Origin: a virus
Reading direction: 5' to 3' (one strand)
Length of the DNA stretch: 64,000 nt
Virus record (IMG/VR): IMGVR_UViG_3300045125_000140
Location: 89,214 to 153,213 of that record
In this document: positions 25,012 to 64,000 of the stretch, in pieces
Layout of the letters: every line of letters begins with the position of its first letter
Position numbering within the stretch: the first letter of the stretch is position 1
The notes under the pieces: model-generated
What the model was told of the DNA's origin: nothing
The model's database searches: none
The model's input: only the letters and a program-made list of their open reading frames with translations
Translations under genes and position numbers: made by a program

Positions 25012-25860
25012 TTGTCCAATGAAATCAAAGATCTTTTTGATTCGGACGACATTGCCAGGCCGCCATTCAATCCGCTTGAAGAGCGCGCATATCTCGAAAT
25101 AATCCATATAAATTGTCAGGGCGACAATCACATTGAGGATCATAATTGCTCCGCTCGAGACGAATTTATAAAACGGAATATGAAACTGGTGCTCGCCTGC
25201 GCCAGACGCTTTGTGTCCGAGAGTGACCCAAGGCTGCCGGATCTAGTGTCTGAGGGCGTGCTTGGGCTGATGCGCGGGATCGACAAGTTCAATATCGATA
25301 AGGTAGGTACAAACGGAAAACCCTACCGGTTTTCAACCTACGGAATGTGGTGGATTCAGTCTCTTATTAGAGAGGCTCTCGGTATCGGCGATAACCGAGT
25401 CATCCGACATAAGTCGTATCACGAGCAATTTAAGAAGGCTCGAGACGAGATATCCGCGGCTACCGGAATTAAGAACATAAATGACGAAGAAGTTTACATC
25501 TACCTAGAAGAGGTCAAAGGCTGGCCGCACGCCAAGATTGTAAAACTTCGGGCAGATACGGATAGAAGAATTGTTCCGGTAACCTCGATCGAGGATCCTC
25601 CGGACGGAAGCATCGAGCCCATCGATCAGATGCTTTTGAAAGAACGCTCCGAGCTTTTAAACAAAGAACTTAGCAACATGTCGTTCGAGGACGTGTACCT
25701 GCTTATGCAGCATTATCACTCGGGCGATACGTACGACGACATCGCGGAGGCGTTTAATTTAAGCCGCGAAAGAATTCGTCAGCGCGAAAATGCAGCACTT
25801 CGACAGCTATGGTCGCGGCTGTCTTCGGTTATCGGTACTAACCCTGAGCAGCGGACGTAG
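25012..25860 (+). CDS. sigma70-family RNA polymerase sigma factor (regions 2, 3 and 4)
   Basis: NMKLVLACARRF, DLVSEGVLGLMRGIDKF, RFSTYGMWWI; region 4 TYDDIAEAFNLSRERIRQRENAALRQL. Confidence 0.92.
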   Translation: MSNEIKDLFDSDDIARPPFNPLEERAYLEIIHINCQGDNHIEDHNCSARDEFIKRNMKLVLACARRFVSESDPRLPDLVSEGVLGLMRGIDKFNIDKVGTNGKPYRFSTYGMWWIQSLIREALGIGDNRVIRHKSYHEQFKKARDEISAATGIKNINDEEVYIYLEEVKGWPHAKIVKLRADTDRRIVPVTSIEDPPDGSIEPIDQMLLKERSELLNKELSNMSFEDVYLLMQHYHSGDTYDDIAEAFNLSRERIRQRENAALRQLWSRLSSVIGTNPEQRT

Positions 25861-47480: not shown

Positions 47481-50104
47481 TTACCGTCCATCCTTTCCCA
47501 GTAGCGATGCTGGTATCGTCCGTCGCGGTCCCCCAGTTACCGGTTACCGTGATGGTTTGAGCACCAACAGCTGTACCTAAATTGGTGTATATCGTGTTTA
47601 ACTCGGCCGCGGCTAACTTGCAATTTTGATAAGAGTGCCCGTATTTCATGCCGGTGGTGTAGCCGCTGCGTATATTTATATTAGTAGCAAAACTAGATAC
47701 AGCCGCGGCCACACTTGTTAAATCTATGATTGGAAGAATCGTTAGCGCAGAGGCGCCTCCAAACACAGAGTTTGCGGAAGTGACGGAACCAAACGAAATA
47801 GATTCAATATAGGTTAGCGCGCTTCCAGAAAACATACTACCCACATCAGTGGCGCTGGGCGCGTTAATTTTAGGTAAAACTCTAAGACCGGTTCCGCTAA
47901 AACAAGAGCTGACATTTGTGGCTCTGGGAAAGTTAAATTGTGGAACAAAACTGGATGATGCCGTATTACCTAACATCCCGCTCACGTTAGTCGCAGACGA
48001 AGTGTCTATTGATGGGATATTTTTAGGCTATAACAGCTACTAAAGGTGCTACCGGTGTTTGTCACTAACGCAGTATTTATGACAGAAACAGATTTTAATG
48101 CGTGGCAATTAAAAAATGTTGCGTTCAGTGTCGTAGCGGATGCGGCATTTATTACAGGCACCTCTTCTAATAGATAACAGTTTGCAAACAAACCTGACAA
48201 ATTTGATGCTTTCGCAGCATCTAAATACTTAATTGATTTAAGAGAATTGCAATTTGAAAACATACTCGCTAATGTCGTACACGCAGCGGTATTTAAATAC
48301 CCCACTGATCTTAATCGGGAGCAGTTGCTAAACATAAAGCTAGCGTCGGTGACACTTCGCAAATCTAAATCAGGCACCTCTTGCAACTGCCTGCAACCAT
48401 TAAACATGTTTGATGTATTTAACAAATTTATAGAATTCATGGGAGGAATTCTAATTAACGATGCGCAGCTTGAGAAGGCACTTCCTCCATAAAGAGCGTT
48501 TGATGTTATTCTGACTGGTGCGTATTGTAGCGAGTAGCAATTACTGAAGGCCGACTGAAACGTAGTAACAGTCTCTGACGTTATTTCGGGCATAGACACT
48601 AATGACCGACAATCTGAGAAGGCGCTTTCGAGATTAGTTATCCCACTTGTCGTAAACGACGGAATAGCTGTAAGAAAATTACAACCAGAAAAACACTGCC
48701 TTAAATCTGTTGGCGTTGAGGGCGGTAGCGATATAATTTTTTCTAATCCGTAGCAGCCGAGCATCATGTTTACCCAGGAAGTCAGTCCTGTATTTGAGCC
48801 AACAAACTCAAATTGCTCTAACATTGCGGGCTTGCTTCCCGTTCCGAATCCTCCAATAACAAGTGTTGTTAAATTTTGACCCGCAACTTTTACATCCAAC
48901 CAGCCAGACATATAATCCGCCAAACCGGATTGATTATGCTTTATATTTAAATCAACTTTAGTTAAGTTTTGACCTGCTTGTGGCGTTATAGTTATTATTA
49001 CTACCTTGTAACCGCGAAACTCACTTTGTCCGCTTATCGCCGCATATTCCGTGGTAGTGTATTGTTTATACGCAGCTGTGTTAGATGTGTAGTTGTTAGA
49101 TGTTCCGTCACCCCAATCTACCGTGTAATTTCCTTGACACGTAAAAGCGACAAAATTTGAGTTATTGTTATATACCGCAAAGGCACCAACAAATTTTTGA
49201 TCCCCGTTGCTAACGGATGGTGAGCTCGGCCAACCACCTATAACTACCGTAGGTGGTTCTGCGTACTTGTTAGTAAATCCACTTAACGTGATACCTGTAA
49301 CCTGATTTGAGGATACTGTCGCTGTTGCTGACGCTCCTTGATTCATACCGTATATAAAAACTGTCGGGGCTGATGTGTATCCTGACCCATTTGCTGTGAT
49401 TGTTACGGTGTCTAAATCGGCTTGTATATAAGCAGTAGCTGCGGCATTCGAACCGCCACCACCTGAAAAACCTATTGCCGGTGCCGACGTATAGCCTGAC
49501 CCATTTCTAATTTTTGCAACAACTATTGCAGGTTTTACGCTTCCAGACGTGCTTATCGTAATTGCGGGTTGACCGATATACCGAGTTCCCGTAGTTCCGA
49601 ATGTTATAGCTGTGATGACTCCGTTAGTTCGAGTAACGCTAGTTATCGTTGCGGTCGTTCCTCCGGATGCGGGAGCTGAAAATGTAATTGTTGGATCTGA
49701 GGTGTAGCCTTCGCCCCCATAGATTATGTCGACGCCGTAAACTTGGTAGTAGCTGGTTACTGCGGTTATGGTGTTACGAAGTTCGCGTAACATAAGCTTC
49801 GGCGCCGCTGCCTCCTCCGCCTGTAAATGTTACCGTAGGATCAGATGTGTAGCTAGAACCAACGTTAGTTACACGGAAAGAAGTCACCGATCCATCTTTA
49901 AGAGACACAGTGGCGGTAGCTCCGGAGCCACCGCCGCTCGATGGCCGAACGTACGTATCCGCATAAGGATATAAACCATCATCTGTGTAGCCGGACACAA
50001 CAGAATACGTGTGATCTCGAGAACTAAACACTCCCTTAGCAACCGACAGCGGAATCTTTCGCCTCTACACCACCAATATACCCGTTATTTCCACGACTCG
50101 GCAT
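47473..50104 (-). CDS. fibre/adhesin with BspA/DUF285-type leucine-rich repeats (frameshifted into 3-4 ORFs)
   Basis: GGxGxGY..P.V...GGGG.GA.A repeats followed by more than 10 FSxCxxLxxxPxxxTxxxT units; ATG at 50104 after AGGAG. Confidence 0.7.
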
Positions 50105-50105
50105 A

Positions 50106-50459
50106 TTACACTCCTAAGAACCAGGCTACCGCTGTTTCGTCGGAACCGGCGCCGCCGGAGGGTGCCGCCCAAAAAACAGGCGGATCATTATTAATGTCGT
50201 AAGTGAGCACGTCGCCATCGTTTGCGGATGATGGATCTACGGTGTAGAGGCCACCAGATCCGTCACCGATGACCATCATTCCTAGTACTGTAAATTCTGA
50301 TAGCGGGACGTACGCGATCTCCTGAACTACGGTAGTGGAGGTCCCTAGGAAAAGTTTCTTGTCGGCGGTGTTGGCGAATATCTCGCCGACAAGAACTCCA
50401 GTTGTCGGAGTGGCGGCGCCCGACGTCGTCGATCTTCTAAGAACTATTCTGTTAGGCAT
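50106..50459 (-). CDS. small virion protein (tail-fibre N-terminal-type motif)
   Basis: MPNRIVLRRS...P....GEIFANTADKKLF. Confidence 0.6.
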   Translation of the reverse strand: MPNRIVLRRSTTSGAATPTTGVLVGEIFANTADKKLFLGTSTTVVQEIAYVPLSEFTVLGMMVIGDGSGGLYTVDPSSANDGDVLTYDINNDPPVFWAAPSGGAGSDETAVAWFLGV

Positions 50460-50484
50460 GTCCTGTGTTCCCCCTCATGATACA

Positions 50485-51885
50485 TCAGTACGTGCCGCCG
50501 TCAATAGTGCTGTTATCGTGAATCAACATGGTGGCGTCATGGTATCTGGATATCGTGATGGATGGAGTATTAGCCCAGTTGACATGATAAATGTCAAAGA
50601 TCCGGTAGTATTTCCGGAGATGGTGAATGCGCACGAGGTGGCTAAGATTGCCGCCGACCGTTAGCGTCCGCCCGCCGTTATTTATCGCCGGTTCCACCGT
50701 ACGTCGAGCCAATCATCGAACCTTGCCACGAACCAGTTCCAATCGTACCTACCGATGTAAGCGAGGAGCTTGTAACACCGCTGCCGAGCGTTGTCGCGGA
50801 GAGCACCGACGTTCCGGCGATCTTGTAGATCTTGGTGGACGCGAGATCCATGTGCTCGCTGCTTGTCCACGAGTCGGTAGCGTCTACCCAGTTAAACGTC
50901 TTGTCGGTGGCGCCTTTAAGCGTGATGCCGCCGCCGTCTGCTGTGACGTCTGTTGGCGTCGCTACGTCCGCCAAGTATTATGTTCTTGTCTTCGACAACA
51001 AGACTGGTGCTATTGATATTGGTTGTTGTACCGTTAACCGTGAGGTTTCCTGAAACAACCAAGCTCTTAACGGTTACGTCACCGTCCCCGTCGACGTAGG
51101 TCTGCAAAACATCTGATGGATCGTAAATTTCAAGCAAGTTCGCCGTCTGGGAAACAGATGCACTGATTTTCAACCCGACAACGTTTGATGTCAGATTTAT
51201 ATCATTTCGATTACTGGTGGTCGGTCCAGTGGTTAGATACTGCGTATGGTCGTCGTCCGCTAAGCCCGTTAAGAGGCCGTGATCGGTTACGCCCGAAGAC
51301 GGCGTCGCCCAGGCCAACGCTCCGGAAGATACCGTAAGAACCTGTCCGTTTGTTCCTATGCCGAGGCGCGAAACCGTGGCGCTTCCAGTTCCGTAAATAA
51401 GGTCGCCGGCCGTAGTTACCGTGGACTTGGGAATCAATCGTGTCTACGTAAGTTTTGGTCGCCGCGTCCTGGGCAGAGGTCGGATCGAGTACACTAGTTA
51501 TTGTTTGAGACGAGGCGTCGAAACCGACGTGCGGTATATCTTACCGGACGCGTTAACCTAGGCGATTGTATCGGTCAACACTCGCAGTTATTGCCAGTTC
51601 CGTAAGATTTAGCTGTCTGAGATGCAGCCGAGTTTTATAGTTAACCCGACTACGTTAGTAGTTCCAGTACACCTGAATAGTGTTCTGAGCGGCAGTATCA
51701 GGTCTGCTGCGTCAACATATCCGATTTCATTTACAGCGTTCGAGCCGCGTTACCGACCCACACCTTATGTCCGCGTTCTTCCACTGGTAGAAACGTTTAC
51801 AGCAAACTCGCCCTGAACCAGCGACGTAGGTATCGAGCACGGTGTGATTTGTCGTGCTATTTTTGATTTTAATTACATTGGCCAT
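50485..51885 (-). CDS. tail-fibre-like protein fragmented by multiple indels
   Basis: Fragments MANVIKIKNS..., DPTSAQDAATKTYVD, LTVNGTTTNINST..VEDKNIIL, ADGGGITLKGATDK, GGTG.NNGG, IDGGTY read in shifting frames. Confidence 0.6.
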
Positions 51886-52667
51886 TAGAAGGTACCCCCG
51901 TCAGTTACTTCTGACTGGTCACGAGATGTCCACGCCGATCCTGAATATGAGAGTAGGTCGGTCGCATTAGGAGACGCTGCATTAACATTGCTGAGGTCGT
52001 TCAGAGATAACACCTCTGACACCCAGCCCGCCGCGATCTTTCCAGAAGCTTGCGCCTTTACGACGGCGTTAGCTGTTGGCGTGGCGGTTATGTTATTTGC
52101 GGTGATATTTCCTGAGGCGTCGAAAGACGCCAAGGTAGTGCCACCGCTGTTTTGAATATTTAAAAGGTTGACCGTTTGCGAGGAGTGCCCTCGTACGGTT
52201 AACGGAATAAAATCGCCGGTTGGTTGAATAGTATTGCGGGTGCTCGTTATCGGCCCAAGTACCACCGAGTCGGTTGACGGGGCCTCGGAGCTAACCACAA
52301 TAGGGCGCCCAAGCTCATCTTTAAAAACAAACCCAGTAGTATCAAAATAATGAATCTGCTGGCCCGGAGCTAAAGTTGCCTTATAAAACTCACGTCGAGT
52401 TGTATTATCTTTTAATTTAAATATAACGGTCGAGGAGGCGGAGTCCTTGTTAATAACCGTCATAGATTTAATCTGCCGGTGCGTATCAACGGCCGGGGCC
52501 GGAATAATCAGAACATTAGTAGTTCCGCTCGTAGTTCCGTTAATCGAGCCTGGCGTAATCGAGGTCGTAGTTATGTCAACAAACGAGGCGGTATACGGCA
52601 ACTCTTCGAAAGTTGCCGAACCGGCTAGGGCTATCTCAATCGACAGCGTTGTTGACGTTAGAATCAT
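51885..52667 (-). CDS. virion structural/fibre protein
   Basis: Thr/Ser-rich, ends with DGGTF. Confidence 0.65.
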   Translation of the reverse strand: MILTSTTLSIEIALAGSATFEELPYTASFVDITTTSITPGSINGTTSGTTNVLIIPAPAVDTHRQIKSMTVINKDSASSTVIFKLKDNTTRREFYKATLAPGQQIHYFDTTGFVFKDELGRPIVVSSEAPSTDSVVLGPITSTRNTIQPTGDFIPLTVRGHSSQTVNLLNIQNSGGTTLASFDASGNITANNITATPTANAVVKAQASGKIAAGWVSEVLSLNDLSNVNAASPNATDLLSYSGSAWTSRDQSEVTDGGTF

Positions 52668-52984
52668 ATTCTAAGGGATATACGCGCCATTACTTGTGGG
52701 TGGGTGAGCCCGCCGCTAGATCCCCCAGAGACCGGAGCAGGCTCCCATTTTCCACTACTATTATTATAAATCAGGGCGTCTCCGTTAGCCGGATTATCCG
52801 CAGAAACGTCCGATAAGCTCGTAAGTCGGTCAATTACCGTCCCCGAATCGACCGTCTCGAGACGTCCATCTTTTCCGATCTGAACCGTAGCATTCGGATA
52901 CGAGCCCGGCAGCGGTGTTAGCTTTACGCCTTGCGCCGTGTTATCGGCAACTGATGTGGGTATATTTGTGTTTCTTGCGCCCAT
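52664..52984 (-). CDS. small fibre-type protein
   Basis: PGSYPNATVQIGKDGR and LSDV....NGDALIYN...KWEP fibre motifs. Confidence 0.6.
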   Translation of the reverse strand: MGARNTNIPTSVADNTAQGVKLTPLPGSYPNATVQIGKDGRLETVDSGTVIDRLTSLSDVSADNPANGDALIYNNSSGKWEPAPVSGGSSGGLTHPQVMARISLRI

Positions 52985-52990
52985 ATAACC

Positions 52991-55174
52991 TCACTGCGGG
53001 ACAACGCCGTAGAGTTCCGGCGGTAGCTGAGAGCCGGTGTACATAACAGTAGGGTCGGCCCACGGTAGTAGATTAGGATCCAAAGCCGTCGTAGACAGCG
53101 ACGGATTATACACGGGTGACGTTACGGTAAGGGGGCCGTTAGCCACTCTGTCTCCGATAGTCTCTATTGCTTGGGCCGCCTGAGCTCCGGTAGCCGCCGC
53201 GGCGTCTACCGCGTTCTTCCCGGCCTCGGCTAGGTTGCCTAGTGCCCCTGTAACCTGCGTCCCGGCGGCCTGAGCGGACCTACCAACCTGTTCGGCTACA
53301 GATCCAGGAATCTCTGCAAATGTGTTAAATGCCTTTTCTAGCCCGGCAGTCAGCCTTCCGGTATCGATGCTGAGATTGGACAAATCAATTACGGGATTTG
53401 GTATGTCGACCTGAACTTTTTCGATTGCGTCCGAGATGTTCTTTATATTGGTGCCTACCTCTTCAATAACGTCCGCGAACGTATTTACCGTACGAGTTCC
53501 GATGTCGATCCCCTGTACTGCCGTGTGCGACACAGCCTGAAATGATTCGTCAATAGCATTATTCAGAACGCTTTTGGCAAATGACCCGGACTTTTCGAGC
53601 GTGACGGTGGGGTCACGAAGTAGAGTAGTGATTCCGGTGGCTACTCCAGGAATGACGCCTCCTGGACCAACAACGACGTCCACGAATCCTTTACCGAGGA
53701 CGCCGGCTGCCTGCACCGCATCGCTGGCTATACCGTGAGCGAAGTCCACGACGGCTTTGAAGTTCTGGAACACCTTGTCCATTACGACGTTGACTTTGTC
53801 CGGATTAAGAGTCACCACGCCGCTGAGCAGGTTTTTAACATCGGTAAGGACCGACGTAACATCTTGGGCTAACGAAGTTAGCGTAAACGTGTTGTGGTGG
53901 ATCATCATAGCCGAGTTCATCATTATAGCGCCGGACGTGAGGTGTGCGCCCCAGGCTCTTTCGATAATCGCATAGTTGGCGGTTATCGAGGTAAGATCGC
54001 TGTCCATAGCGATCTGGCTGGCTTGAACTCCAAAGCTCTTTGCATTTATAGCGGTGTTATTGCTGTCAATAACTACCGATTTAGATTTTAAAACGATGCC
54101 CGTGTCGGTTATATGGATGGCGGATTCAGTTCCAGCCATCAAGGATATCGAGTTACGGTCGACAACGACGGTCTTGTTTTTGACCTTTAGGAGCATTCTA
54201 CCGACGTCGGTATCGAACTCTAATAGACCCCAGTCTCTGAAAATAGTTCGAGATCCGTGGACGGCTAATCCGGGACCTTCCTTAGTGAGATACCCCTCGG
54301 CATGGAATATCTCCAAAGTTCTTTTATTGTTGGCGCGATCTACTCGATCTAATCGGCGTCGAACAGTTTGAGTGTCGTGGTCGTGCTCGGTTACAAGGTA
54401 GTCTCCGAGTACCTCTCGGCGACCGCGTTTAACTTGCGGACGATAGAACAGCTCGGCGGGTCCCTGGGAATACGCTCCGCCAGGACTGGGAATAAACCCT
54501 TCGATTGTTTCGCGGTCTAGTCGGGCTTCCGTTCCGTTGGCTCGCTCTTTACTTTCGTTTAGCGGATCTGCTCTAACCTCTTCACGCAGAACGAGGCGCT
54601 TAGCTATATCACCCGCAAAGGTAGCATTCGTTTTAAACGTCAGCGTGTTCGAGTATCCGGGACCTCTCGTCACAAAACCTTGCGCCGACGTTATGATTTC
54701 GCGATCCTCTGCGTCGAAGTACTGGAAACAGCTGGCTGATGATTTTATTTCGATGCTGCCGAACTCGTAAGCGCGAATAAAATTTACAGGCTTAGAACCG
54801 TCGGCCGGTTTAGGAATTACGGACGCATCTCCGGAACCAGTCGGAACATTATCGGTAAAGTTTCTGAACGACGGCAGATTCGGCTTCGGCTTGTTGGAGA
54901 ACTTCTCTACGATGTTTCCCGTTATCGAGGCGATAGCCTCTTCGGGCGTCATCTGCCGCTGCTCATCGACGGTTTGCTGGGCTGGAGGAATAACTCCAAA
55001 GATAACCCATCGATCTCCGGATCTTCCGCAAACTACGCGCTCTCCAGTGACAAATCGGCGCTCTGCTCCAGTTACTAATTGGACAGCGTATACGGACCCA
55101 AATCCCTCCAACAGCACGCTATATACGTACGTGTCGGCGTTGAATACCGAGATGGTTCCGTTATATAGAATCAT
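52991..55174 (-). CDS. baseplate central spike (gp5/gpV/VgrG-like) with C-terminal helical extension
   Basis: N-terminal OB-fold-like GERVVCG...WVIFGV; short beta-repeat region (IVLKSKSVVIDSNNTAINAKS); PAAR-like gene nearby. Confidence 0.6.
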   Translation of the reverse strand: MILYNGTISVFNADTYVYSVLLEGFGSVYAVQLVTGAERRFVTGERVVCGRSGDRWVIFGVIPPAQQTVDEQRQMTPEEAIASITGNIVEKFSNKPKPNLPSFRNFTDNVPTGSGDASVIPKPADGSKPVNFIRAYEFGSIEIKSSASCFQYFDAEDREIITSAQGFVTRGPGYSNTLTFKTNATFAGDIAKRLVLREEVRADPLNESKERANGTEARLDRETIEGFIPSPGGAYSQGPAELFYRPQVKRGRREVLGDYLVTEHDHDTQTVRRRLDRVDRANNKRTLEIFHAEGYLTKEGPGLAVHGSRTIFRDWGLLEFDTDVGRMLLKVKNKTVVVDRNSISLMAGTESAIHITDTGIVLKSKSVVIDSNNTAINAKSFGVQASQIAMDSDLTSITANYAIIERAWGAHLTSGAIMMNSAMMIHHNTFTLTSLAQDVTSVLTDVKNLLSGVVTLNPDKVNVVMDKVFQNFKAVVDFAHGIASDAVQAAGVLGKGFVDVVVGPGGVIPGVATGITTLLRDPTVTLEKSGSFAKSVLNNAIDESFQAVSHTAVQGIDIGTRTVNTFADVIEEVGTNIKNISDAIEKVQVDIPNPVIDLSNLSIDTGRLTAGLEKAFNTFAEIPGSVAEQVGRSAQAAGTQVTGALGNLAEAGKNAVDAAAATGAQAAQAIETIGDRVANGPLTVTSPVYNPSLSTTALDPNLLPWADPTVMYTGSQLPPELYGVVPQ

Positions 55175-58100
55175 TTAGTCTTCTTTGGAAGTCCCGTGTC
55201 CGTAACACCGGTCATAGCTAACCGAGTGATGACGTGGCCGCTGGTTCCGGCGTCTGCCTTCAAACCAAGCATCGGTGCCTTCTTCATCGTTTCGAACAAA
55301 CGCTCGTGCATCATTCGGCCGATGAAGTCGTCGTTGTGGTGCGGCACCTTCTCGATGCCCAGCATATGAGTGTCGTAAACGATCTTTTTGGTGAGATGCT
55401 TGTTCATCTCTTCGATTGTGTTTACATCCATAATGTCGCCAATATGGATGTGCGCTTTTATGGCGTCACCAGGATCTCGGACTACGGCCTTGTTGGTCAG
55501 CGGCTTTACGACTGTTTCGAAGATCCGGCGCTTAATGTTCACGTCCGAGCTCTTGTAGATATTATCTACCTCGTGAATGATCGCATCCTGGACCTTCCGA
55601 ACATCGTTGGTAGCGTGAAGCAGATCTTGCGGACGGAGTAGGCCGCTCAGCGATATCTGCTCGCCGGCGTTAACCATCTGGTTTAGCTTGACCTTTAACC
55701 CGACTTCCTTGGGGACGTAGTGATTAACTTTGTTAATAACAACGTTCCAACCACCCTGCGTAGCCGGGGTTATTGAGGTGACCTTGCCCGCGACGTTCGC
55801 CAAAACCGACTTACCGGTAACGTTCTCGGGCAGCGAGAATATCTGATGGACGCGCTGATATCCGACGCTGTTGGTGCCTAAGCTGCCTGCCGTATGGAAG
55901 GTGCGGAGCGTAAGCTGCGTAGTCGGCTCACCGATGGTCTGGGCAGCAAGAATGCCGATATGGTATCCGATTGGATAGAATCGACCGTCTTCGCTTGCCC
56001 CGAAGCACATCTGGCAAGTACCGTTCTTCGAGCGGCAATACAGCGGGCTGCGAACTTTGATCGTCTTATGCTTAACCGAGACTTCGCGGATACGCGCGGG
56101 CGTGAGCAGGGTTCCGCGGAGCGGCCCGTTTGCCACGACGCGATCAACTACGTCCTTGCTGTCTATAGGAAGCTCAACGCCCTGATCGGTTCCGCAATCC
56201 TTCTCACGAATAACGTTATCGATATTTGCGTTTACAAGGAGCTTGGTCAGGTAGCCGGTGTCCGCCGTAGACAAGCCTTTATCCATCAAGCCGCGGCGAC
56301 CGCCAGGAAGCGTTGACCAGTAGGACCCGATGTCGAATCCTTCGGCAAACGACTTATTGATAATGATCGGGATCGTCTTGCCGGCGTGGTCCGTAACGGC
56401 GACAGGAGATGCCAACATTCGAGTGACCTGGCTCGCCTTGCCGCCCAGAGCGCCTGAGCCGGACGTCAAGGTTACAAAACGATTAGACGTATCCGAATGC
56501 ACATCCTTAGAGATCTGCTTGAGCGCGTCTCCGGCGGCCTGGCCGAAGCCGGTTTTGGGGATCTGCTTCTGGGCCACACCAAGAGCGTTGTCTCGCTTAG
56601 CAGTATCAAACTTCAGGTCTCGGAGAGATATAGAGAACCCGATCTCCGTAACGTAGTGATTGCCGAGATCCTTAAGAGTATTAACCAGCTTAGGAAGCTC
56701 AGTCGGCGTTTCCTTAGCTACACCGTTGATAAGTTCAGAAAGCACCTTAGACGTCATGGGTCCGGACAGCTTAAACTTCGCTGGGATGATGTGATTGAGC
56801 ATCACCATTCCAGGGCAGATTATCTTTCCGTTTACGGCGAACGCCGTGTTTGCATTGGCCTTCTTATTCTTGTACAGCGATACGATCTCTTCTTCGGAGT
56901 TCGCCTTTGCCGGCGCGCCCTCCGGCTTGCTCATCAAGTAGAGGCCGAGAACCGTCTCGGCCGCCGGAGCGTGCATCATCTTCCCGCTTGACGGCGAGAA
57001 GAGGTTTTTAGAAGGCAGCAACTTCTCCTTGAGTTCATGCTTGGCTTCCTCAGTGACCGGCACGTGAATACCGGTCGTATCTCCGTCAAAGTCCATATTA
57101 TAGCCTTTGACGATAAGAGGATTTACTTGCACGGCTCTCCCGTCTACGAGTCGTGGGTAAAACGCCATAACGTTAAACTTGTGGAGAGACGGAGACCGGT
57201 TCATGACTACCGGTCTTTCGGCCGCTTCCGCAAGCGCTGCCTTTATCGCGATTGGATCCTGCTTCTCGGTCATCTCGCGAGCCTGAACCGGCGTGTACCC
57301 AAGATTAACCAGGCGGCGAACAATGAACGGTTTGTAGATGGACATCGCCATCTCTTTAGGAATTCCCACCTCATCCAGGCCGAGCTTAGGATCAGGAATA
57401 ACCGTTGTTCTGGCCGAGAGGTCTTGTGGGCGAGAGAGGAGTCGGCCCTGGAAGAAGCCGGTCTTATTCTGCACACCCTTGATCTGCTCTAAGAAACCTT
57501 TGAAGTGGCTTTCGCGCGTAATCGGTTCAGTAAGGCCGACCAATCCGCTGACCGACTTGAACAGGTCGCCGCGAAGATCCTGGACTAGCTTAGGATCGAC
57601 TTTCATGCTCTTCATGTCCTTAAGAGCATTCGACACCATGAGAACTTCACGATAACCGTGATTAGCGTCGGCCACGTTCAACGACCCGTCCGGAAGTGGG
57701 TACACGGCTCGGAACTTCGGCGGAATAACCGGCACGTACTTATTCATATAAGCTTCGTGCGGCTTGAGGTTTATAGATTTTAATCCGAGCAGGTACCGGC
57801 GCTTTTTGTTATACGAGTCCAGCTTTTGCGCCGACTTCGTATTAAAGATCATTGCGTTTAGCTTGGACAACTCCGCGTCGACATCGATCTTAGACAGCGC
57901 TTCCTTGATCGCGTCTCCGCCGGTGTGCTTGTGTCCGTCGGTAGGAACTATCTTACCGTCTTGCAAGCCTTTGCGCCCGGCCATAATATCCAGAATAGTC
58001 GCTTCCGGAATACCCAGCACTGCAGCAACTGCTTTCGTCGCAAGCGGATTAACGATCGGCTCCGGCAGTTCGATATGATTCCAGTTGGTTCCGCCTATTC

Positions 58101-61100
58101 CGCCCGTAACTCCTGGATCAAAGAGCCCGCCCTTTTCTGGTTTTAAATCGCTGGCGGTAATAACAGTTGGCTGCTGTATCGCGCCGCTGGACACACGAAG
58201 AATGTCGTGATCCGTTATCGGCAGCGCCTTGATCTTGTCGCCCTCTTTGTGCAGGTGAATGCCCGCACCAAGCATCGTGGCGTTGAACTTCTCGGCAACA
58301 AACGGAACTTTAGGCTTAGGCAGCGGGAGGCCCAGCTGCAAGTTGCGCCAATACTCATCGTTACGATTTGACTTAAGGTGGAACGCGTCGTGAACAAACT
58401 TAGTGGCATCGCCGGCAAGTAGGGCGTACAGCTCGAGTCCGCCGATACGCTGCGCCGACTCTTCGTCGGTCTTAGCAGGCTGCTCATTTATTGTATACTC
58501 GCCGCCGACACCGCGGGCAGCGAACTTCTTTGCGACCTGATGGCGTAGCTTAATAAAGTGCGTATCTCCAACAAGAACGCGCGGATACTTCCGGCCACTG
58601 ATCGGATCGGTGACGGTCTCTTCCCCGTGAGGGTCGAGGCCGGCCTTCTTCAACTCACCTTGAACGTGATCAAGGGTGCTCTTTGATGTGTCGAAGTTCT
58701 TAACCAGGAACGGTTTACCGGTCACCTTGGCGAGCTTGCCCGCAGCCGCCTCATATAGCTGACCTGGATTTACGCGTCCCGGCACGCCCGCGGGATTAAA
58801 TAGAACATCGATGGGCTTGCCGTGCTCGTCTTGAAGCATCTCGTTATCGGGAAGAATCTTTACGATAATTCCCTTACCGCCGTGACGATGGCTGATCTTG
58901 TCGCCGATAACTGCGGCCTCTTCGGTGCTTACAAACACCTTTACAAACTTGCCGGTCTTTACGACTTCCGTAACGACACCGACCGCATCGTGATCGTACA
59001 CCGCCGACGAGTCCGACCAGCCACTGCTAAGCGCCTTGTGTAGGCGGGTAAGGTCGTAATCTGCGTGATATTCGTGCTTACGGATTATCGGAATAAGAAG
59101 ATCGCCGTGGTGAACCTGTGCGCCCTTCTTGATGATTCCGTCGTTGTCGTATTTACCGCGGTCACGGATGTGGGCGGCCTGGTCCGGGAAGTTGGCTAAA
59201 TACGGACCGAGTCCGAGCTTAGCAGACGAATCGACATCGACGCGATACTCGTACTGATGCAGAGACGTAAGCTTTTGGGAAGCGGCGTGACTTATCACGA
59301 ACCCGTCTTCGAAGTTGTACCCCTTGTACGGCATGTACGCGACGCGAAGATTTTTACCGAGCGCGAGTCTGTCGTCCTTGGTAAAGTTATTTGTCGCAAT
59401 TACCTGGCCCTCGGATACCTTATCGCCAACCGCGACGGCTGGCGTATCGTGCATATAGGTATTTCCGTTTAGAGGGTGCTTGTTATTGAGGTAGTGCTGA
59501 ACCTTCTTGCCGTTCGCCGACACCTCGATAACGTCTTCGGTTATCTTAGTTACCTTGCCGGAAACCTTTGATCTGACCTGAAGATTTCGTCCAAATGCCG
59601 CATCGTAAGAAACACCGGGGACAAGTTCAGCGCTGACCAGCGGAGCATCCGGATTCTTCAGATTTATGGCCTGCTCGATGTGGCGGTCGGCATAGCCTAC
59701 GCGGAGGGCATCGTCCGTATGCAAGAACGGAACCATCTGCGAAGTGAGTCCGAATAGCGCAAAACCGGTCGGGATAATGTACTCGACCTGCGTTGCCGGC
59801 ACCTTCTTGATCTCGGCTTGAACTCTAGCCGTGACCGTTGCCGATCGCGGCTTCGGCGGCTTCTTGGTCAGATCATAGTTATCCGGAAACGAGATAATCT
59901 TCTTATCCAGCTCAGTTACGGTCTTCTCTTCTTCGGCCCCGGTCTTGGCATTTATTACCGCAATAACCATCGCCGTGCCGCGCTTCGACACGGTCGGCGA
60001 AAGGTGATTAGTGATACCTACCTTTTGGCCTTCTGGCGTATGCACCGGGTCAAGAACACCGATATGGCTGGGGTGAACTAAACGAATCGAGTCCGCGACA
60101 GCGTGCTGCGAAGTAATGCCGCCTTCGCCCATGGTCGTAACCGTAAGCGGAACGCTAACCATCTCTACCGGATTAGTTTGATCTGCAAACCGCGAGAACT
60201 CGCTGGTGTTGAAGAACATCTTTATCGGCGTGGTGAACGCGAGAGGCGAAAACGCGCCGGTGATCTTACCGACCCGGTCCATCTTTGAGGACAGGCCGTA
60301 TTGAATAGTCTTTAAAGACTTCTCGATCTTTTCCGGAATAAAGTCCTCAAACGAGTGCAGGCTCTTAAACGCCAAGCTCTCGGTATCGTCCGGCTTTTCC
60401 GAACCTTTTGCAATTCTTATGCACTTGGCCGCCGCGTCCAAAAGGGCAGGACCAGTAACCGAGGCGTGAGACTCGTTAAGCGTGATTTTATTTACGGCAG
60501 GATCGAGCGGTTTCGATCCGAGGAACGTCTTTATCTCTTCCTTAGCCCGGTCTAACGACCCTGGGTACTTGTTGTATGGGCGCAACCTTTCATATAGCCG
60601 CTGCACCTCTTTGTCATCATTAACTTTCGCGTTGGACAACTCGAAGATATCCTTACCCATCACCGATATCATCTGCGCATCGGTGACTCCGAGGCATCGA
60701 AGTACGGTCGTGAGCGGAATATGGAATCCGGTACCGATTCTGAACTTAAACTTGCCGCCCTCTTCGCGATCGAACACGACTCGATACGTGCCTGCCGCTG
60801 AGGTATTTACGAAGGTCTCTACGTTATTATCGTGAGTAAACCGAGAATAGAGGCCAGGCCGTAATCGGAGCTGATTGATCACGTTGAGCTCTTTACCGTC
60901 TACGATAAAAGAGCTCTTGTCGGTCATCGTCGGAAGCAGCGCGACAACTACGCGCTTCGTCTCAACCGTCTTCCCCTGCAAATCTTTAAGCGTAAGGTTT
61001 GCGTATAACTTCGACGCTAGCGTACCCTCGTTCATTCGAACGGTTTTGTGCAGCTTCTTATCGTCGTAGGCGTTAGCGACATCGGACCACATCCAACCAT

Positions 61101-61206
61101 CCGCATCGAGAACATACTTTCGGCCCTGAATAGGAAACGCCTTCTTAATGACGTCCATTGTTCTGGACTTCAGCTCGACAAAACGATCTTGCGGGGAGTT
61201 GAACAT
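55171..61206 (-). CDS. rpoBC: multi-subunit-type DNA-directed RNA polymerase, beta and beta' fused in one polypeptide
   Basis: beta: TPEGQKVG, GDKISHRHGGKG, NPAGVPGRVNPGQ, QRIGGLE. beta': PVIPPKFR, NRSPSLH, NMDFDGD, bridge helix GGRRGLMDKGLSTADTGYLT, trigger loop AQTIGEPTTQLTLRTFH. Confidence 0.97.
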   Translation of the reverse strand: MFNSPQDRFVELKSRTMDVIKKAFPIQGRKYVLDADGWMWSDVANAYDDKKLHKTVRMNEGTLASKLYANLTLKDLQGKTVETKRVVVALLPTMTDKSSFIVDGKELNVINQLRLRPGLYSRFTHDNNVETFVNTSAAGTYRVVFDREEGGKFKFRIGTGFHIPLTTVLRCLGVTDAQMISVMGKDIFELSNAKVNDDKEVQRLYERLRPYNKYPGSLDRAKEEIKTFLGSKPLDPAVNKITLNESHASVTGPALLDAAAKCIRIAKGSEKPDDTESLAFKSLHSFEDFIPEKIEKSLKTIQYGLSSKMDRVGKITGAFSPLAFTTPIKMFFNTSEFSRFADQTNPVEMVSVPLTVTTMGEGGITSQHAVADSIRLVHPSHIGVLDPVHTPEGQKVGITNHLSPTVSKRGTAMVIAVINAKTGAEEEKTVTELDKKIISFPDNYDLTKKPPKPRSATVTARVQAEIKKVPATQVEYIIPTGFALFGLTSQMVPFLHTDDALRVGYADRHIEQAINLKNPDAPLVSAELVPGVSYDAAFGRNLQVRSKVSGKVTKITEDVIEVSANGKKVQHYLNNKHPLNGNTYMHDTPAVAVGDKVSEGQVIATNNFTKDDRLALGKNLRVAYMPYKGYNFEDGFVISHAASQKLTSLHQYEYRVDVDSSAKLGLGPYLANFPDQAAHIRDRGKYDNDGIIKKGAQVHHGDLLIPIIRKHEYHADYDLTRLHKALSSGWSDSSAVYDHDAVGVVTEVVKTGKFVKVFVSTEEAAVIGDKISHRHGGKGIIVKILPDNEMLQDEHGKPIDVLFNPAGVPGRVNPGQLYEAAAGKLAKVTGKPFLVKNFDTSKSTLDHVQGELKKAGLDPHGEETVTDPISGRKYPRVLVGDTHFIKLRHQVAKKFAARGVGGEYTINEQPAKTDEESAQRIGGLELYALLAGDATKFVHDAFHLKSNRNDEYWRNLQLGLPLPKPKVPFVAEKFNATMLGAGIHLHKEGDKIKALPITDHDILRVSSGAIQQPTVITASDLKPEKGGLFDPGVTGGIGGTNWNHIELPEPIVNPLATKAVAAVLGIPEATILDIMAGRKGLQDGKIVPTDGHKHTGGDAIKEALSKIDVDAELSKLNAMIFNTKSAQKLDSYNKKRRYLLGLKSINLKPHEAYMNKYVPVIPPKFRAVYPLPDGSLNVADANHGYREVLMVSNALKDMKSMKVDPKLVQDLRGDLFKSVSGLVGLTEPITRESHFKGFLEQIKGVQNKTGFFQGRLLSRPQDLSARTTVIPDPKLGLDEVGIPKEMAMSIYKPFIVRRLVNLGYTPVQAREMTEKQDPIAIKAALAEAAERPVVMNRSPSLHKFNVMAFYPRLVDGRAVQVNPLIVKGYNMDFDGDTTGIHVPVTEEAKHELKEKLLPSKNLFSPSSGKMMHAPAAETVLGLYLMSKPEGAPAKANSEEEIVSLYKNKKANANTAFAVNGKIICPGMVMLNHIIPAKFKLSGPMTSKVLSELINGVAKETPTELPKLVNTLKDLGNHYVTEIGFSISLRDLKFDTAKRDNALGVAQKQIPKTGFGQAAGDALKQISKDVHSDTSNRFVTLTSGSGALGGKASQVTRMLASPVAVTDHAGKTIPIIINKSFAEGFDIGSYWSTLPGGRRGLMDKGLSTADTGYLTKLLVNANIDNVIREKDCGTDQGVELPIDSKDVVDRVVANGPLRGTLLTPARIREVSVKHKTIKVRSPLYCRSKNGTCQMCFGASEDGRFYPIGYHIGILAAQTIGEPTTQLTLRTFHTAGSLGTNSVGYQRVHQIFSLPENVTGKSVLANVAGKVTSITPATQGGWNVVINKVNHYVPKEVGLKVKLNQMVNAGEQISLSGLLRPQDLLHATNDVRKVQDAIIHEVDNIYKSSDVNIKRRIFETVVKPLTNKAVVRDPGDAIKAHIHIGDIMDVNTIEEMNKHLTKKIVYDTHMLGIEKVPHHNDDFIGRMMHERLFETMKKAPMLGLKADAGTSGHVITRLAMTGVTDTGLPKKTK

Positions 61207-61207
61207 A

Positions 61208-61597
61208 TCAGGACATACCCTTCAACTTGGCGCTGTCGTCCTTGCGCAGGGCGGATCCGACCTTGACCAGGGGCAGATCCTCTCCAACTTCATAGTACTC
61301 GATAAAGCAGCGGTAGTCGACGCTGTCCGCGCCACGAACCATGGAGATCTTCTCGCTAACGAACTCATATCGACTAACGTCGTTATGAATCATCTGCCAC
61401 CGCTCCATGTCGGTCGGGATGCTTAGGTCCAGAAGCTCGCAGCGACGCATCTTCGCAAGACCGGCTCGATTATCGATCAATCCAGTTGGAATAGCCTTGA
61501 CGCTCTTGGTCGCGAGCTTTGTGCTCATAGCGTCAAGAACTCTCGTAGCCAACTGGTTGGTCACTCGAGACCGGTCTGCGTTGATGTTGCCGCTCAT
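61208..61597 (-). CDS. hypothetical protein between portal and RNAP
   Basis: 129 aa, coupled to both neighbours. Confidence 0.65.
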   Translation of the reverse strand: MSGNINADRSRVTNQLATRVLDAMSTKLATKSVKAIPTGLIDNRAGLAKMRRCELLDLSIPTDMERWQMIHNDVSRYEFVSEKISMVRGADSVDYRCFIEYYEVGEDLPLVKVGSALRKDDSAKLKGMS

Positions 61598-63501
61598 ATC
61601 GGGCTGTTATCTCTTCGCGGAGCTTGATGCTCGGGAAGGGGACGAAGGAACGGATCTCTACCCTGCTCTCGGATCATGGATAGCTTCTCCGAGATAGCCG
61701 TGGCAAGAAGCGGATTAGTCTTGCGGATATTTGCAAGCTCCATCTTCTTGGCATCAGCATCGCCCGGGTCCTTGATAAACTTATCCGCCATCACTTCGAT
61801 CAAGTGAGGGGATTGTGTATCGGGAGGAACCGGCAGCGTAGCCATCTGCTGAGCCGGCGCTTGCGGCATGGGCGGCTGCGCGGGCGCGGGCGGCTGCGGC
61901 ATACCCGGAGCTGCGGCCGTCTTCTTCATCTCGCGCGGCGGCGGAATCTGCGGACCGGCGGCGGCCGCAGCCTGCTGCTGCGCTTGCTGCTGAAGTTGCT
62001 GGGCTCTGAGCTGATATTCGGTCTGAATAAGCATCGCCTTGCCCTGCGCCTCGGCCTGAACGGACATAGTCTTCGTAACGGCGTTGTCTCGGTCCGAAGC
62101 CTCGTCCTGGCGACGGCGGCGTTCGAGCTCCGGATCGAATCCGAGTTCTTCAAGAACGGTAAGATCGGATACGGTATTTGTCTGACGCAGGCCGAGGGCG
62201 ATCTGGCGCTGCTGCGCGTCGTCCGCCATCTTGAAGTCCTTGTGCCGGATTTTTACCGGAGGCAGCGACAAGAACATCTGCAGCTTCGGAATAAGGAAGT
62301 CTTGCAAGAAGGCGTTTAGCTGATCGATCGTGCTGAGGAAGATGTTTTCGAGAACTCGGAGCGAGATGGACGAACCAGACCAGCTCAGATTTCCGTAAAC
62401 AAACTCTTGCGGAACGTCCAAGCCGCCGGCGATCTGCTGGCGAACCTGGTTCATTTCGTTAAAGACGTTTAGGTTGTTCGCGTCGCCTCGGACGTTCTCC
62501 ACGCTAACCGGGAACGGTACCGTGTAGATCGAGTTCTGGTCGCGGCGCCACCGATGGACGATGTCCATCATCTTTCTCGACCACTCTCCGAGATCCGTAT
62601 TCATGTGCGGCGATACGCCGGATTGAGACGGCTGCGGAATAAGGAGAGTTAGCGGTAGGGCGTGCTCTAGCGCAATAGCCTCCTGCGCTCGCTTATAAGT
62701 CTGGAACAGCCACGCATCCTTAAAGATCGGCAACATTGGAGGCATGCCGAACGCGTCGTCTTCGGACGACACCGAAGGATTCTTGAAGTGGTATACGTTG
62801 CTGGTGTCGAGGAGGAGGTTTTTACGCTCCTTAATTGCCTTAAGGAATTCCAGCGGTGTCCCCTCGACAAACACAGCGTTAGCCTGCTTATTTTCGACGC
62901 GCTGCCGCATCCACTTAGGAATACGGTAGATGTATTCGCTAGCATCCGTGAGCGGATTATAACGAATGTCGATGTACTGCGGGTTCCACCGAACAACCTT
63001 GATACGAGAGCGATTGCGGATGACCTTATCTTCCGCCTTCATATTTCCCTTGCGTCCGCACTTATCGCACTTCGCGCTGAATTGGAAGTCGGAATACGTC
63101 CACTTGCCGCGAATAGCGACTTGTTTATTTTCGCACGCCGGGCAGACCAAGTAGCGCTCGAACGGATACAGAATCGAGCAGAACGCGTTTCCGTAAACAG
63201 AGAAGTCGAGAAGGAGCTTATATTCGAGCTCTCGAATCTTCAGCGTCTTTTCGAGAACCTCTTTCCAGAGATCTTTTGGTTTCTCTTTCGGCGTCTCATA
63301 GATGAGGCCGGTTATTACGTACGAGCACTTCTTGTTGATAATCGGCGCGATTTCCGAGTGGCTCGAATACAAGTAGTGGCACCACCGGAACAACTCTTTG
63401 ACCGTCGGCGGCATGTACGTCGACGAGATGTCGAACCATTGGTGCGGGTAGCCGCCGATAGATCCGCGACGTCCGCCGCGTAATTGCGCAACTGGAGGCA
63501 T
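61594..63501 (-). CDS. portal protein
   Basis: 635 aa; GMPPMLP, QIAGGLDVPQEFVYG portal-like motifs; Cys4 insertion; Q/P-rich tail. Confidence 0.7.
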   Translation of the reverse strand: MPPVAQLRGGRRGSIGGYPHQWFDISSTYMPPTVKELFRWCHYLYSSHSEIAPIINKKCSYVITGLIYETPKEKPKDLWKEVLEKTLKIRELEYKLLLDFSVYGNAFCSILYPFERYLVCPACENKQVAIRGKWTYSDFQFSAKCDKCGRKGNMKAEDKVIRNRSRIKVVRWNPQYIDIRYNPLTDASEYIYRIPKWMRQRVENKQANAVFVEGTPLEFLKAIKERKNLLLDTSNVYHFKNPSVSSEDDAFGMPPMLPIFKDAWLFQTYKRAQEAIALEHALPLTLLIPQPSQSGVSPHMNTDLGEWSRKMMDIVHRWRRDQNSIYTVPFPVSVENVRGDANNLNVFNEMNQVRQQIAGGLDVPQEFVYGNLSWSGSSISLRVLENIFLSTIDQLNAFLQDFLIPKLQMFLSLPPVKIRHKDFKMADDAQQRQIALGLRQTNTVSDLTVLEELGFDPELERRRRQDEASDRDNAVTKTMSVQAEAQGKAMLIQTEYQLRAQQLQQQAQQQAAAAAGPQIPPPREMKKTAAAPGMPQPPAPAQPPMPQAPAQQMATLPVPPDTQSPHLIEVMADKFIKDPGDADAKKMELANIRKTNPLLATAISEKLSMIREQGRDPFLRPLPEHQAPRRDNSPI

Positions 63502-63503
63502 AG

Positions 63504-64000
63504 CTAGTTACTCTCCGCTGCCATGAGGATACGCTGACGAGAATAGTCCTCGACCGCGATCAACTTGGAAGCCTGTACCTCAACGAGGTCGTCGAGTTTG
63601 ATTTTGTTGGGGTTGAAGTTTTCGTCCGCAGCGCGCGCTCTGATCTGATTTCGCACATCAGAGGACGTGTTGGGCTCGGCAAACATCAACTTCTTAGGAT
63701 ACGCAAAGACCCCAGCTTGAGAGAAGCACGCTTGAATATATTTAATTACGTTATCGTCAAACTTGATTGGAAATACGAGCGTATTCGCAATCTCGTACGC
63801 GTAGTTTATTTCTTGCGGAGAGCAGATCTCAAACACCTCGAACGACGGAGTAAAGTTATTTAATCCGACAGTAACTGCTTCGAATCCTCGGATGTCCGTC
63901 GTATATGCCGGCAGATTAGTTAAGAGCGTCTTGGCGGCCTGGATGGACGCCTTTGCGCCGGCGCTGATATTCTTGATTCCGAATTCGTTATAGATAGACG
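63504..64000 (-). CDS. hypothetical protein (5' truncated; frame open to the window edge)
   Basis: The reading frame upstream of the track start 63836 has no stop to position 64000. Confidence 0.65.
   Translation of the reverse strand, partial: SIYNEFGIKNISAGAKASIQAAKTLLTNLPAYTTDIRGFEAVTVGLNNFTPSFEVFEICSPQEINYAYEIANTLVFPIKFDDNVIKYIQACFSQAGVFAYPKKLMFAEPNTSSDVRNQIRARAADENFNPNKIKLDDLVEVQASKLIAVEDYSRQRILMAAESN

Follow-up and report, generated by a model that had tools for sequence, protein, structure and literature searches.

A one-chain beta-beta' RNA polymerase gene of bacterial type in a tailed phage genome and its relatives

The stretch of DNA analyzed here (64,000 nucleotides, referred to as the window) corresponds to bases 89214-153213 of IMGVR_UViG_3300045125_000140, a 155,302-bp linear record of the IMG/VR database, from a freshwater tailed phage, that CheckV estimates to be 81% complete. 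Its minus strand carries one open reading frame (ORF) in which the two large subunits of a bacterial-type RNA polymerase (RNAP), beta and beta', follow each other in a single polypeptide. The features of this gene, in window coordinates, are as follows.

55171..61206, minus strand: fused beta-beta' RNA polymerase gene (protein P0001, 2011 amino acids), from the ORF listing, the translation, Pfam and the RNAP families of PHROG
58240..61206, minus strand: beta module, residues 1-989, aligning to E. coli beta 34-1341 (MAFFT)
55171..58239, minus strand: beta' module, residues 990-2011 plus stop, aligning to E. coli beta' 18-1370
58198..58305, minus strand: fusion junction, residues 968-1003, from the alignment, AlphaFold2, independent contigs and gp206 of Salmonella phage Arash
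57079..57099, minus strand: catalytic Mg-binding motif N1370-M-D-F-D-G-D1376 (bacterial NADFDGD), from the alignment
60001..60216, minus strand: equivalent of the rifampicin-resistance-determining region, residues 331-402, aligned to E. coli beta 505-575

The ORF begins with ATG and runs for 2011 codons without an internal stop. The beta domains of Pfam come first, namely Rpb2_3 (amino acids 340-403) and Rpb2_6 (571-912), and the beta' domains Rpb1_1 (997-1223), Rpb1_2 (1329-1394), Rpb1_3 (1401-1531) and Rpb1_5 (1627-1915) lie downstream, with E-values of the six matches from 1.5e-06 to 3e-60. This order upholds the original prediction, made from the letters alone, of one 2011-residue ORF with beta motifs followed by beta' motifs, and the junction peptide that it had placed at about 58200-58320 was located at residues 968-1003. 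Among PHROG families, the protein matches two unannotated ones strongly and jumbo-phage RNAP subunits weakly (E 1e-8 to 1e-22). The solved structures closest to the beta' module by sequence are bacterial beta' chains (E 2e-99), and no fused chain was found among the solved structures by a sequence search with the junction segment. Only one beta barrel was counted in the whole record. We consider this ORF to be, probably, the phage's own and sole DNA-dependent RNA polymerase, with a bacterial-type two-barrel core contained in one polypeptide.

The protein had also been described as streamlined and as about 740 residues shorter than E. coli beta plus beta'. The computed difference is 738 residues (1342 + 1407 = 2749, minus 2011), and in this sense the description stands, but it is overstated, because the E. 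coli comparator is rich in inserts: in the alignment, inserts peculiar to E. coli-like lineages account for the bulk of the gap. Among the bacteria sampled, the smallest pair has 1171 and 1173 amino acids measured from stop to stop (about 2344 in total), and the phage enzyme is about 330 amino acids shorter than this pair.

For a map of the anatomy, 15 members of the family were aligned by MAFFT with beta and beta' of E. coli MG1655. At the junction, G989 (equivalent to beta 1341) directly adjoins D990 (beta' 18), with no linker between them and with the first 17 residues of beta' missing. The segments 1-33, 215-296, 323-361, 932-1047, 1126-1141 and 1159-1194 of E. coli beta have no phage counterpart, nor do residues 68-99 and 945-1135 of beta' (the latter being SI3, which is inserted in the trigger loop), part of the jaw and the C-terminal tail. 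The first of these beta' segments is the zinc-binding domain with C70, C72, C85 and C88, which is missing in all 10 family members aligned at this point. What is kept includes the bridge helix, both trigger-loop helices (without SI3), the second zinc site (C...C..C..C), the flap and the clamp coiled-coil, whose region 1151-1223 aligns to beta' 235-307. The active-site lysines K770 and K778 correspond to K1065 and K1073 of E. coli, and the pair E633/D634 to E813/D814. Across 37 diverse family members, K770, K778 and D634 are invariant, and so are D1372, D1374, G1375 and D1376 of the Mg-binding motif.

We also modelled residues 560-1460 by AlphaFold2 with an input alignment of 37 sequences, which gave a mean predicted local distance difference test score (pLDDT) of 86 and a predicted template modelling score (pTM) of 0.76. 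The junction was modelled as a two-stranded beta-hairpin (strands 983-988 and 991-996, pLDDT about 88-92) and the clamp coiled-coil as helices 1180-1200 and 1205-1223, while the flap-tip segment 716-726 is present and was modelled as disordered, with low confidence. By fold, this model comes closest to bacterial beta' chains and to the gamma subunit of cyanobacteria. Judged by alignment and model, the RNAP is a conserved and catalytically intact one-chain core with sigma-docking elements.

The rifampicin pocket differs from that of E. coli at four places, where Q513 is replaced by R339, H526 by V352, R529 by T355 and S531 by T357. We take these to be classic rifampicin-resistance positions of E. 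coli beta, and because all four diverge, transcription by the phage enzyme is predicted to be insensitive to rifampicin.

Near-identical DNA was found in lake and freshwater metagenomes of 15 studies. Contigs from two other freshwater studies span the junction with 97-98% identity (X3, 55451-58783; X4, 57217-58810), and freshwater metatranscriptome contigs span it too. No indel was reported anywhere in the RNAP gene in the independent contigs, and a stop or frameshift at the junction, which we sought in these assemblies as a sign of an assembly fusion, was absent; an assembly fusion is thus not supported. Portal, terminase and major head genes flank the gene, in agreement with its assignment to a tailed phage as a genuine single-chain beta-beta' RNAP. 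The explanation that the long ORF is an artefact of assembly or gene calling, in which neighbouring rpoB and rpoC of a phage, or of a contaminating bacterium, were joined, might appeal to the single metagenomic contig on which the window rests and to database homologues that look beta'-only, but hundreds of assemblies share the junction, as do two groups of cultured phages, the beta'-only calls that were checked proved to be contig-end truncations or frameshifted assemblies, and degenerate patterns derived from the RNAP protein matched no encoded relative in 185,579 prokaryote genomes, and we regard it as refuted for practical purposes. With 95-100% identity, the metatranscriptome contigs (window 55785-61244) extend over about half of the gene; they do not show the strand, and carry-over of DNA into them is possible.

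The fused RNAP belongs to a large family. A word-indexed search returned 788 homologues, more than 100 of which are full-length proteins of about 2000 amino acids with the same domain order and 34-57% identity, on contigs reaching about 200 kb. HMMER was also run exhaustively, with the beta' half as query, on 1.84 billion cluster representatives (50% identity), and 14,025 of them matched. The best 150 all have E <= 4e-149; they comprise 127 proteins of at least 1976 amino acids, whose beta' part starts near residue 950 or later, 16 truncated ones that still have beta upstream, and 7 beta'-only pieces. Moreover, a pattern scan of IMG/VR found at least 483 contigs encoding relatives, and the best 80 loci contained about 58 complete fusions and about 17 loci with beta' split as in phage Arash (see below). 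In total, the family makes up more than 120 clusters at 50% identity, in phage genomes of about 180-210 kb. Because no close relative was found by pattern search among the 185,579 prokaryote genomes, there is no prophage or host clue. Aligned together, phage and bacterial sequences proved too divergent to serve for pattern searches.

We also considered whether relatives with a separate beta' occur within the clade, and rejected this: such sequences are scattered among fused ones in the tree, and the two that were inspected were a frameshifted assembly and a contig-end truncation. A third such sequence, P0137, has no beta gene within the 2.5 kb upstream, at which point the contig ends. There may be a few genuine secondary splits within the fused clade. 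In the frameshifted assembly (L293, 2637-8952), beta appears as four short ORFs of 279, 211, 281 and 201 amino acids before a beta' of 983 amino acids; this looks like frameshift errors of assembly and shows how calls of separate subunits can arise. Many family members (P0011-P0013, P0020-P0023, L104, L105, L123, L127, L128, L154 and others) have 2400-3760 amino acids, and their extra length consists of inteins or homing endonucleases (PF14528, PF05204, PF14890). In these intein-bearing members, breaks in the HMMER match recur after DFDGD (about 1375-1379 of P0001), at about 1426-1436 and at about 1769-1772.

The family has members in culture. The protein is matched best in INPHARED by Vibrio phages D181, D148 and D69 (29% identity, 93% of its length) and by Salmonella phage Arash (32% identity, residues 1-1429). 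These four phages, with genomes of 181-187 kb, share with the window phage the same beta-beta' junction (in gp206 of Arash) and the gene order of portal, small ORF and RNAP; Arash and D69 also have one RNAP per genome and sigma genes, without alpha. They differ in that beta' is split past the catalytic motif, giving a beta-beta'N protein of 1525-1527 amino acids and a beta'C protein of 606-609 amino acids encoded up to about 5 kb downstream. The genes of the two genomes are as follows.

Arash, L002 5971-10548 and L171 442-2262: beta-beta'N (gp206) and beta'C (gp216) genes
Vibrio phage D69, L003 4971-9554 and 10193-12022: beta-beta'N and beta'C genes

The fusion is hidden in public annotation, because the public records label beta-beta'N as "beta subunit" or "hypothetical protein". 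The Arash paper likewise names gp206 "beta" and reports it as the most-detected virion protein, with 3516 spectra, and gp216 and a sigma factor were also detected in the virion proteome (PMC10585845). This bears on the earlier statement that biochemical work on these enzymes was not known: the Arash proteomics provides one experimental datum on the lineage, and the statement holds for the fully fused members, which are represented by sequence only.

We then placed the family by three trees. The first, of beta plus beta' (81 rows, 1952 columns, LG+G4), separated 21 bacteria from 59 phage sequences with a Shimodaira-Hasegawa-like approximate likelihood ratio (SH-aLRT) support of 100. The second, of beta' (68 rows, 1027 columns, LG+C20+F+G4), included 35 bacteria of at least 14 phyla with the candidate phyla radiation (CPR) among them, and five archaea as outgroup; here the phage clade (support 100) is sister to monophyletic Bacteria (support 94). 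The third was a careful search under LG+C20 with an archaeal outgroup, in which the longest rows had been removed (47 rows), and Bacteria were again monophyletic to the exclusion of the phage clade (ultrafast bootstrap, UFBoot, 90; SH-aLRT 96). The Arash-type clade was recovered in this tree at 98/96, as either a sister of the full fusions or a group nested in them. The family does not nest in a bacterial rpoBC clade, so that this second check, like that of the junction, leaves the original prediction standing; its position outside every sampled bacterial phylum is solid.

These trees must be weighed against the explanation that the polymerase is a recently captured, fast-evolving bacterial rpoBC, for example from a lineage with natural fusions, and that its basal position is due to long-branch attraction. 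In fact, the best sequence and fold matches are all bacterial beta' chains (26-30% identity), natural beta-beta' fusions occur in Wolbachia, the phage stem is long (1.1-1.5 substitutions per site) and meets the long archaeal branch, a meeting that the tree tool flags, and the bacterial monophyly of 90/96 is not decisive; the basal position may therefore be inflated. However, with 26-35 bacteria from at least 13 phyla in the trees, CPR included, no phylum attracts the phage clade under either the homogeneous or the C20 model, the Wolbachia fusion differs from the phage one in that neither its termini nor its zinc-binding domain have been lost, and the diversity of the family, down to about 35% identity, argues for age. 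Recent capture is in our view unlikely. The family would rather be a separate branch beside all sampled Bacteria than a recent capture of host rpoBC, with long-branch effects possible.

Two other sequences came up during this work. Rhizobium phage RHph_TM30 (Kleczkowskaviridae) encodes a separate beta' of 1127 amino acids (L172, 8743-12126), at a locus that also has a gene annotated as "prohead core protein"; its beta' sits on a very long branch that joins the tree between Bacteria and the fused clade, and it may represent the published lineage with separate subunits (see below). A Candidatus Paceibacterota genome (L279, 163-7014) has a frame of 2284 amino acids, the first 640 residues of which resemble E. 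coli beta 11-774 and the rest beta' from residue 14; an unusual arrangement of rpoB and rpoC in a bacterium might explain this, as might an error of assembly.

Weinheimer and Aylward (2020) described multisubunit-RNAP-encoding Caudovirales (mReC), with 97 contigs carrying both subunits (PMC7481178). Like the present family, these are tailed phages of metagenomes whose beta and beta' align readily to cellular homologues and whose RNAP branches apart from the cellular lineages (here with the long-branch caveat given above). In the accessible part of their supplementary list, beta has about 1000-1560 amino acids (about 1000 or about 1365) and beta' about 900-1390 (about 900 or about 1005), and the size class with beta of about 1000 and beta' of about 900-975 sums to about the length of the 2011-residue protein. 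The difference is that beta and beta' are separate in every row of that part, with two sets in some genomes. The original prediction had credited this study with some fused forms, which is not supported: its text mentions fusion for crAssphage only, and the rows just mentioned are all separate (PMC7481178). The mReC pipeline, which needed one hit for beta and another for beta', would probably have missed single-protein forms. The head and terminase markers of mReC, PF07068 and PF03237, were not found by Pfam in the record, and the markers themselves (PF07068/VOG11186 and PF03237/VOG01069) occur in just 8 and 31 of the 97 contigs; none of six metagenome identifiers with fused relatives is in the mReC RNAP table (PMC7481178). 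Membership of the fused family in mReC, or a place near it as the original prediction had it, is unproven by this comparison with the published descriptions.

Natural RpoB-RpoC fusions also exist in cells, in Helicobacter as well as in Wolbachia, and these are ordinary cellular enzymes working with alpha and omega. The Wolbachia fusion resembles the phage one in having beta and then beta' in one frame and in showing that a tethered core is viable. It differs in keeping a complete C-terminus of beta, the N-terminus of beta' and the zinc-binding domain, whereas the phage junction is trimmed by about 18 beta' residues and the domain deleted. A cellular fusion would be expected to branch inside its own phylum, and the phage family lies outside all sampled phyla.

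Other phage polymerases can be compared in two groups. First, the phiKZ/AR9-type enzymes are likewise two-barrel RNAPs that work without alpha and omega, and one set is delivered by the virion (PMC7598289, PMC7824862, PMC13282480), but they consist of 4-5 polypeptides in two paralogous sets without a sigma70-family gene, against one chain, one set and two sigma70-family genes here. Second, the RNAPs of crAss-like phages, YonO and the P23-45 tape measure also hold both barrels in one polypeptide, and some are virion-delivered (PMC10770324), but they have no recognisable similarity to COG0085/COG0086, whereas the present RNAP strongly matches six Pfam beta and beta' domains and has a trigger loop, a flap and the helices of the clamp. 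Full-text literature searches and papers on RNAP and jumbo phages yielded no account of a bacterial-type beta-beta' fusion in phages, and this large family is apparently undescribed. Phage RNAPs of bacterial type and natural beta-beta' fusions are kinds already known, and the one-chain phage enzyme falls within them.

The genes around the RNAP and the sigma genes of the record are listed here.

61594..63501, minus strand: portal gene, directly upstream of the RNAP block (26% identity, E 6e-70, to the annotated Arash portal)
61208..61597, minus strand: ORF of 129 amino acids between portal and RNAP, function unassigned (no Pfam or PHROG match)
52991..55174, minus strand: ORF of 727 amino acids directly downstream of RNAP, a presumed virion protein (ORF listing; no family match)
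25012..25860, plus strand: sigma70-family factor of 282 amino acids with regions 2 and 4 (Pfam Sigma70_r2 and Sigma70_r4; phrog_351)
Record 62286-62873, outside the window (L004 1402-1989): second sigma70-family gene, 195 amino acids, regions 2 and 4 (Pfam)

The RNAP lies in a block of virion genes on the minus strand, with the terminase (matching PF05876 and phrog_675) and major head genes (the head protein matching phrog_2522) further along. From 63501 down to 51885, the portal gene, the 129-residue ORF, the RNAP and ORFs of 727, 106 and 260 amino acids follow one another with overlaps of 4 nucleotides or gaps of a few bases. The 4-nucleotide overlaps are those of the portal with the 129-residue ORF and of the RNAP stop with the 727-residue ORF, and the 129-residue ORF ends one base before the RNAP start. 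This arrangement suggests that the run from the portal to the 260-residue ORF is one translationally coupled unit. In at least 34 of 82 related loci, most of which offered only about 3 kb of sequence on the upstream side, a portal homologue immediately precedes the RNAP, and homologues of the 727-residue ORF follow the RNAP in 3 close relatives. The 129-residue ORF is conserved in the closest relatives only; we considered it as a conserved accessory subunit and rejected this, as the small ORF that takes its place in Arash is not similar to it. Elsewhere in the window (48006-49793, minus strand), a protein of 595 amino acids contains a region of DUF285 repeats and weakly matches PHROG families for baseplate, tail fibre and virion structure.

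Subunit genes were searched in the record and in its relatives. The original prediction saw no alpha or omega gene in the window, and the search now covers the entire record: neither alpha (PF01000, PF01193) nor omega (PF01192) was found in its 155,302 bp, with all controls positive, a negative that is limited by the record being 81% complete. Five complete or near-complete relatives were also checked, namely three IMG/VR genomes (202-211 kb, 100% estimated completeness), Arash and Vibrio phage D69. In these, no alpha (PF01000) was found, each has one beta barrel, and sigma region 2 is matched in four of the five, with a score that passes the Pfam cut-off in three. The 282-residue sigma of the window is a candidate initiation factor for the phage RNAP, and the two sigmas of the record could define temporal classes.

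Bacterial-type RNAP is normally an alpha2-beta-beta'-omega assembly, and in E. coli, engineered fusions show that assembly is supported when beta is tethered to beta'. We propose that in the phage enzyme the covalent tether would replace the platform of the alpha dimer, so that the enzyme could fold and work without alpha or omega, because the joined termini fold as one confident hairpin and because both natural and engineered fusions are tolerated. The sigma70-family proteins of the phage would provide promoter recognition by docking on the clamp helices and flap tip, the divergent rifampicin pocket would make phage transcription insensitive to the drug, and loss of the zinc-binding domain should alter how the enzyme contacts the spacer DNA of promoters and the factors that act at the RNA exit channel.

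Several observations weigh against such a self-sufficient enzyme. The fully fused members are known from sequences and models alone, and the absence of alpha and omega genes is compatible with use of the host's subunits. A docking prediction of the 282-residue sigma with beta'N (residues 990-1460), run without controls, scored 0.00, which counts for neither side; k-mer enrichment in 106 upstream regions of the record gave no recurrent promoter motif, and a scan of 50000-64000 for sigma70-type promoters and terminators was at or below the shuffled expectation. In addition, the phage sigmas could redirect the host RNAP instead, as in T4 or SPO1. These points lead to an alternative in which the fused core assembles with host alpha2 and/or omega, is not self-sufficient, and leaves the phage sigmas to act on the host polymerase. 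In its favour, alpha2 is normally required for the assembly of bacterial cores, as is well established. Sigmas that redirect host RNAP are encoded by many phages (PMC7824862), and the docking prediction gave no evidence of an interaction. On the other hand, the six related genomes, with likely hosts as different as Salmonella, Vibrio and freshwater bacteria, all lack alpha, and dependence on host alpha would need contacts conserved across such hosts; the multisubunit RNAPs of jumbo phages function without alpha or omega (PMC13282480), and the tethering of engineered fusions mentioned above aids assembly. We judge dependence on host subunits to be rather improbable.

Returning to the self-sufficient enzyme, its synthesis would be late, with translational coupling to the genes of the portal and other virion proteins, and virions might contain it and bring it into the cell along with the DNA, so that it starts the following infection. 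Virion delivery is suggested by the presumably late, portal-coupled expression of the sole RNAP gene and by the Arash proteome; we regard it as a real possibility, somewhat short of probable. The competing account is that the polymerase is not a virion protein, the host RNAP transcribing the early genes and the phage enzyme the middle and late ones only. It can point to the inclusiveness of the Arash virion list, which has 116 proteins, among them ribonucleotide reductases and metabolic enzymes (PMC10585845), so that the RNAP signal may be carry-over; packaging in the window phage rests on inference, and a protein of 225 kDa is a demanding cargo. Against it, the sole RNAP gene lies within a translationally coupled block of portal and virion genes in many relatives, phiKZ-like and N4-like phages typically express their virion RNAP genes in this manner (in part PMC7598289), and the homologue ranks first in Arash virions. 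We take this account seriously too, without calling it probable.

The fused RNAP is real, well conserved and abundant in nature. Tentatively, and with considerable doubt about the whole of it, we suggest that it is the type example of a large and overlooked lineage of phages whose entire transcription apparatus is a self-assembling one-chain RNAP of bacterial type with a phage sigma, packaged alongside the genome and injected as a finished holoenzyme, on a branch predating the diversification of bacterial RNAP. If this is true, it would be the smallest natural sigma-dependent RNAP of the cellular type and would test whether alpha, omega and the zinc-binding domain are dispensable. With a mass of about 225 kDa, sigma-docking elements in place, and neither the zinc-binding domain nor any lineage-specific insert, such a natural one-chain enzyme would define a minimal working core; it would be a simple target for cryo-electron microscopy and for orthogonal sigma-dependent expression systems, and a new data point on the early history of RNAP. 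As Arash and the Vibrio phages are in culture, the rifampicin resistance, promoter use, subunit composition and virion delivery of this family are open to experiment.

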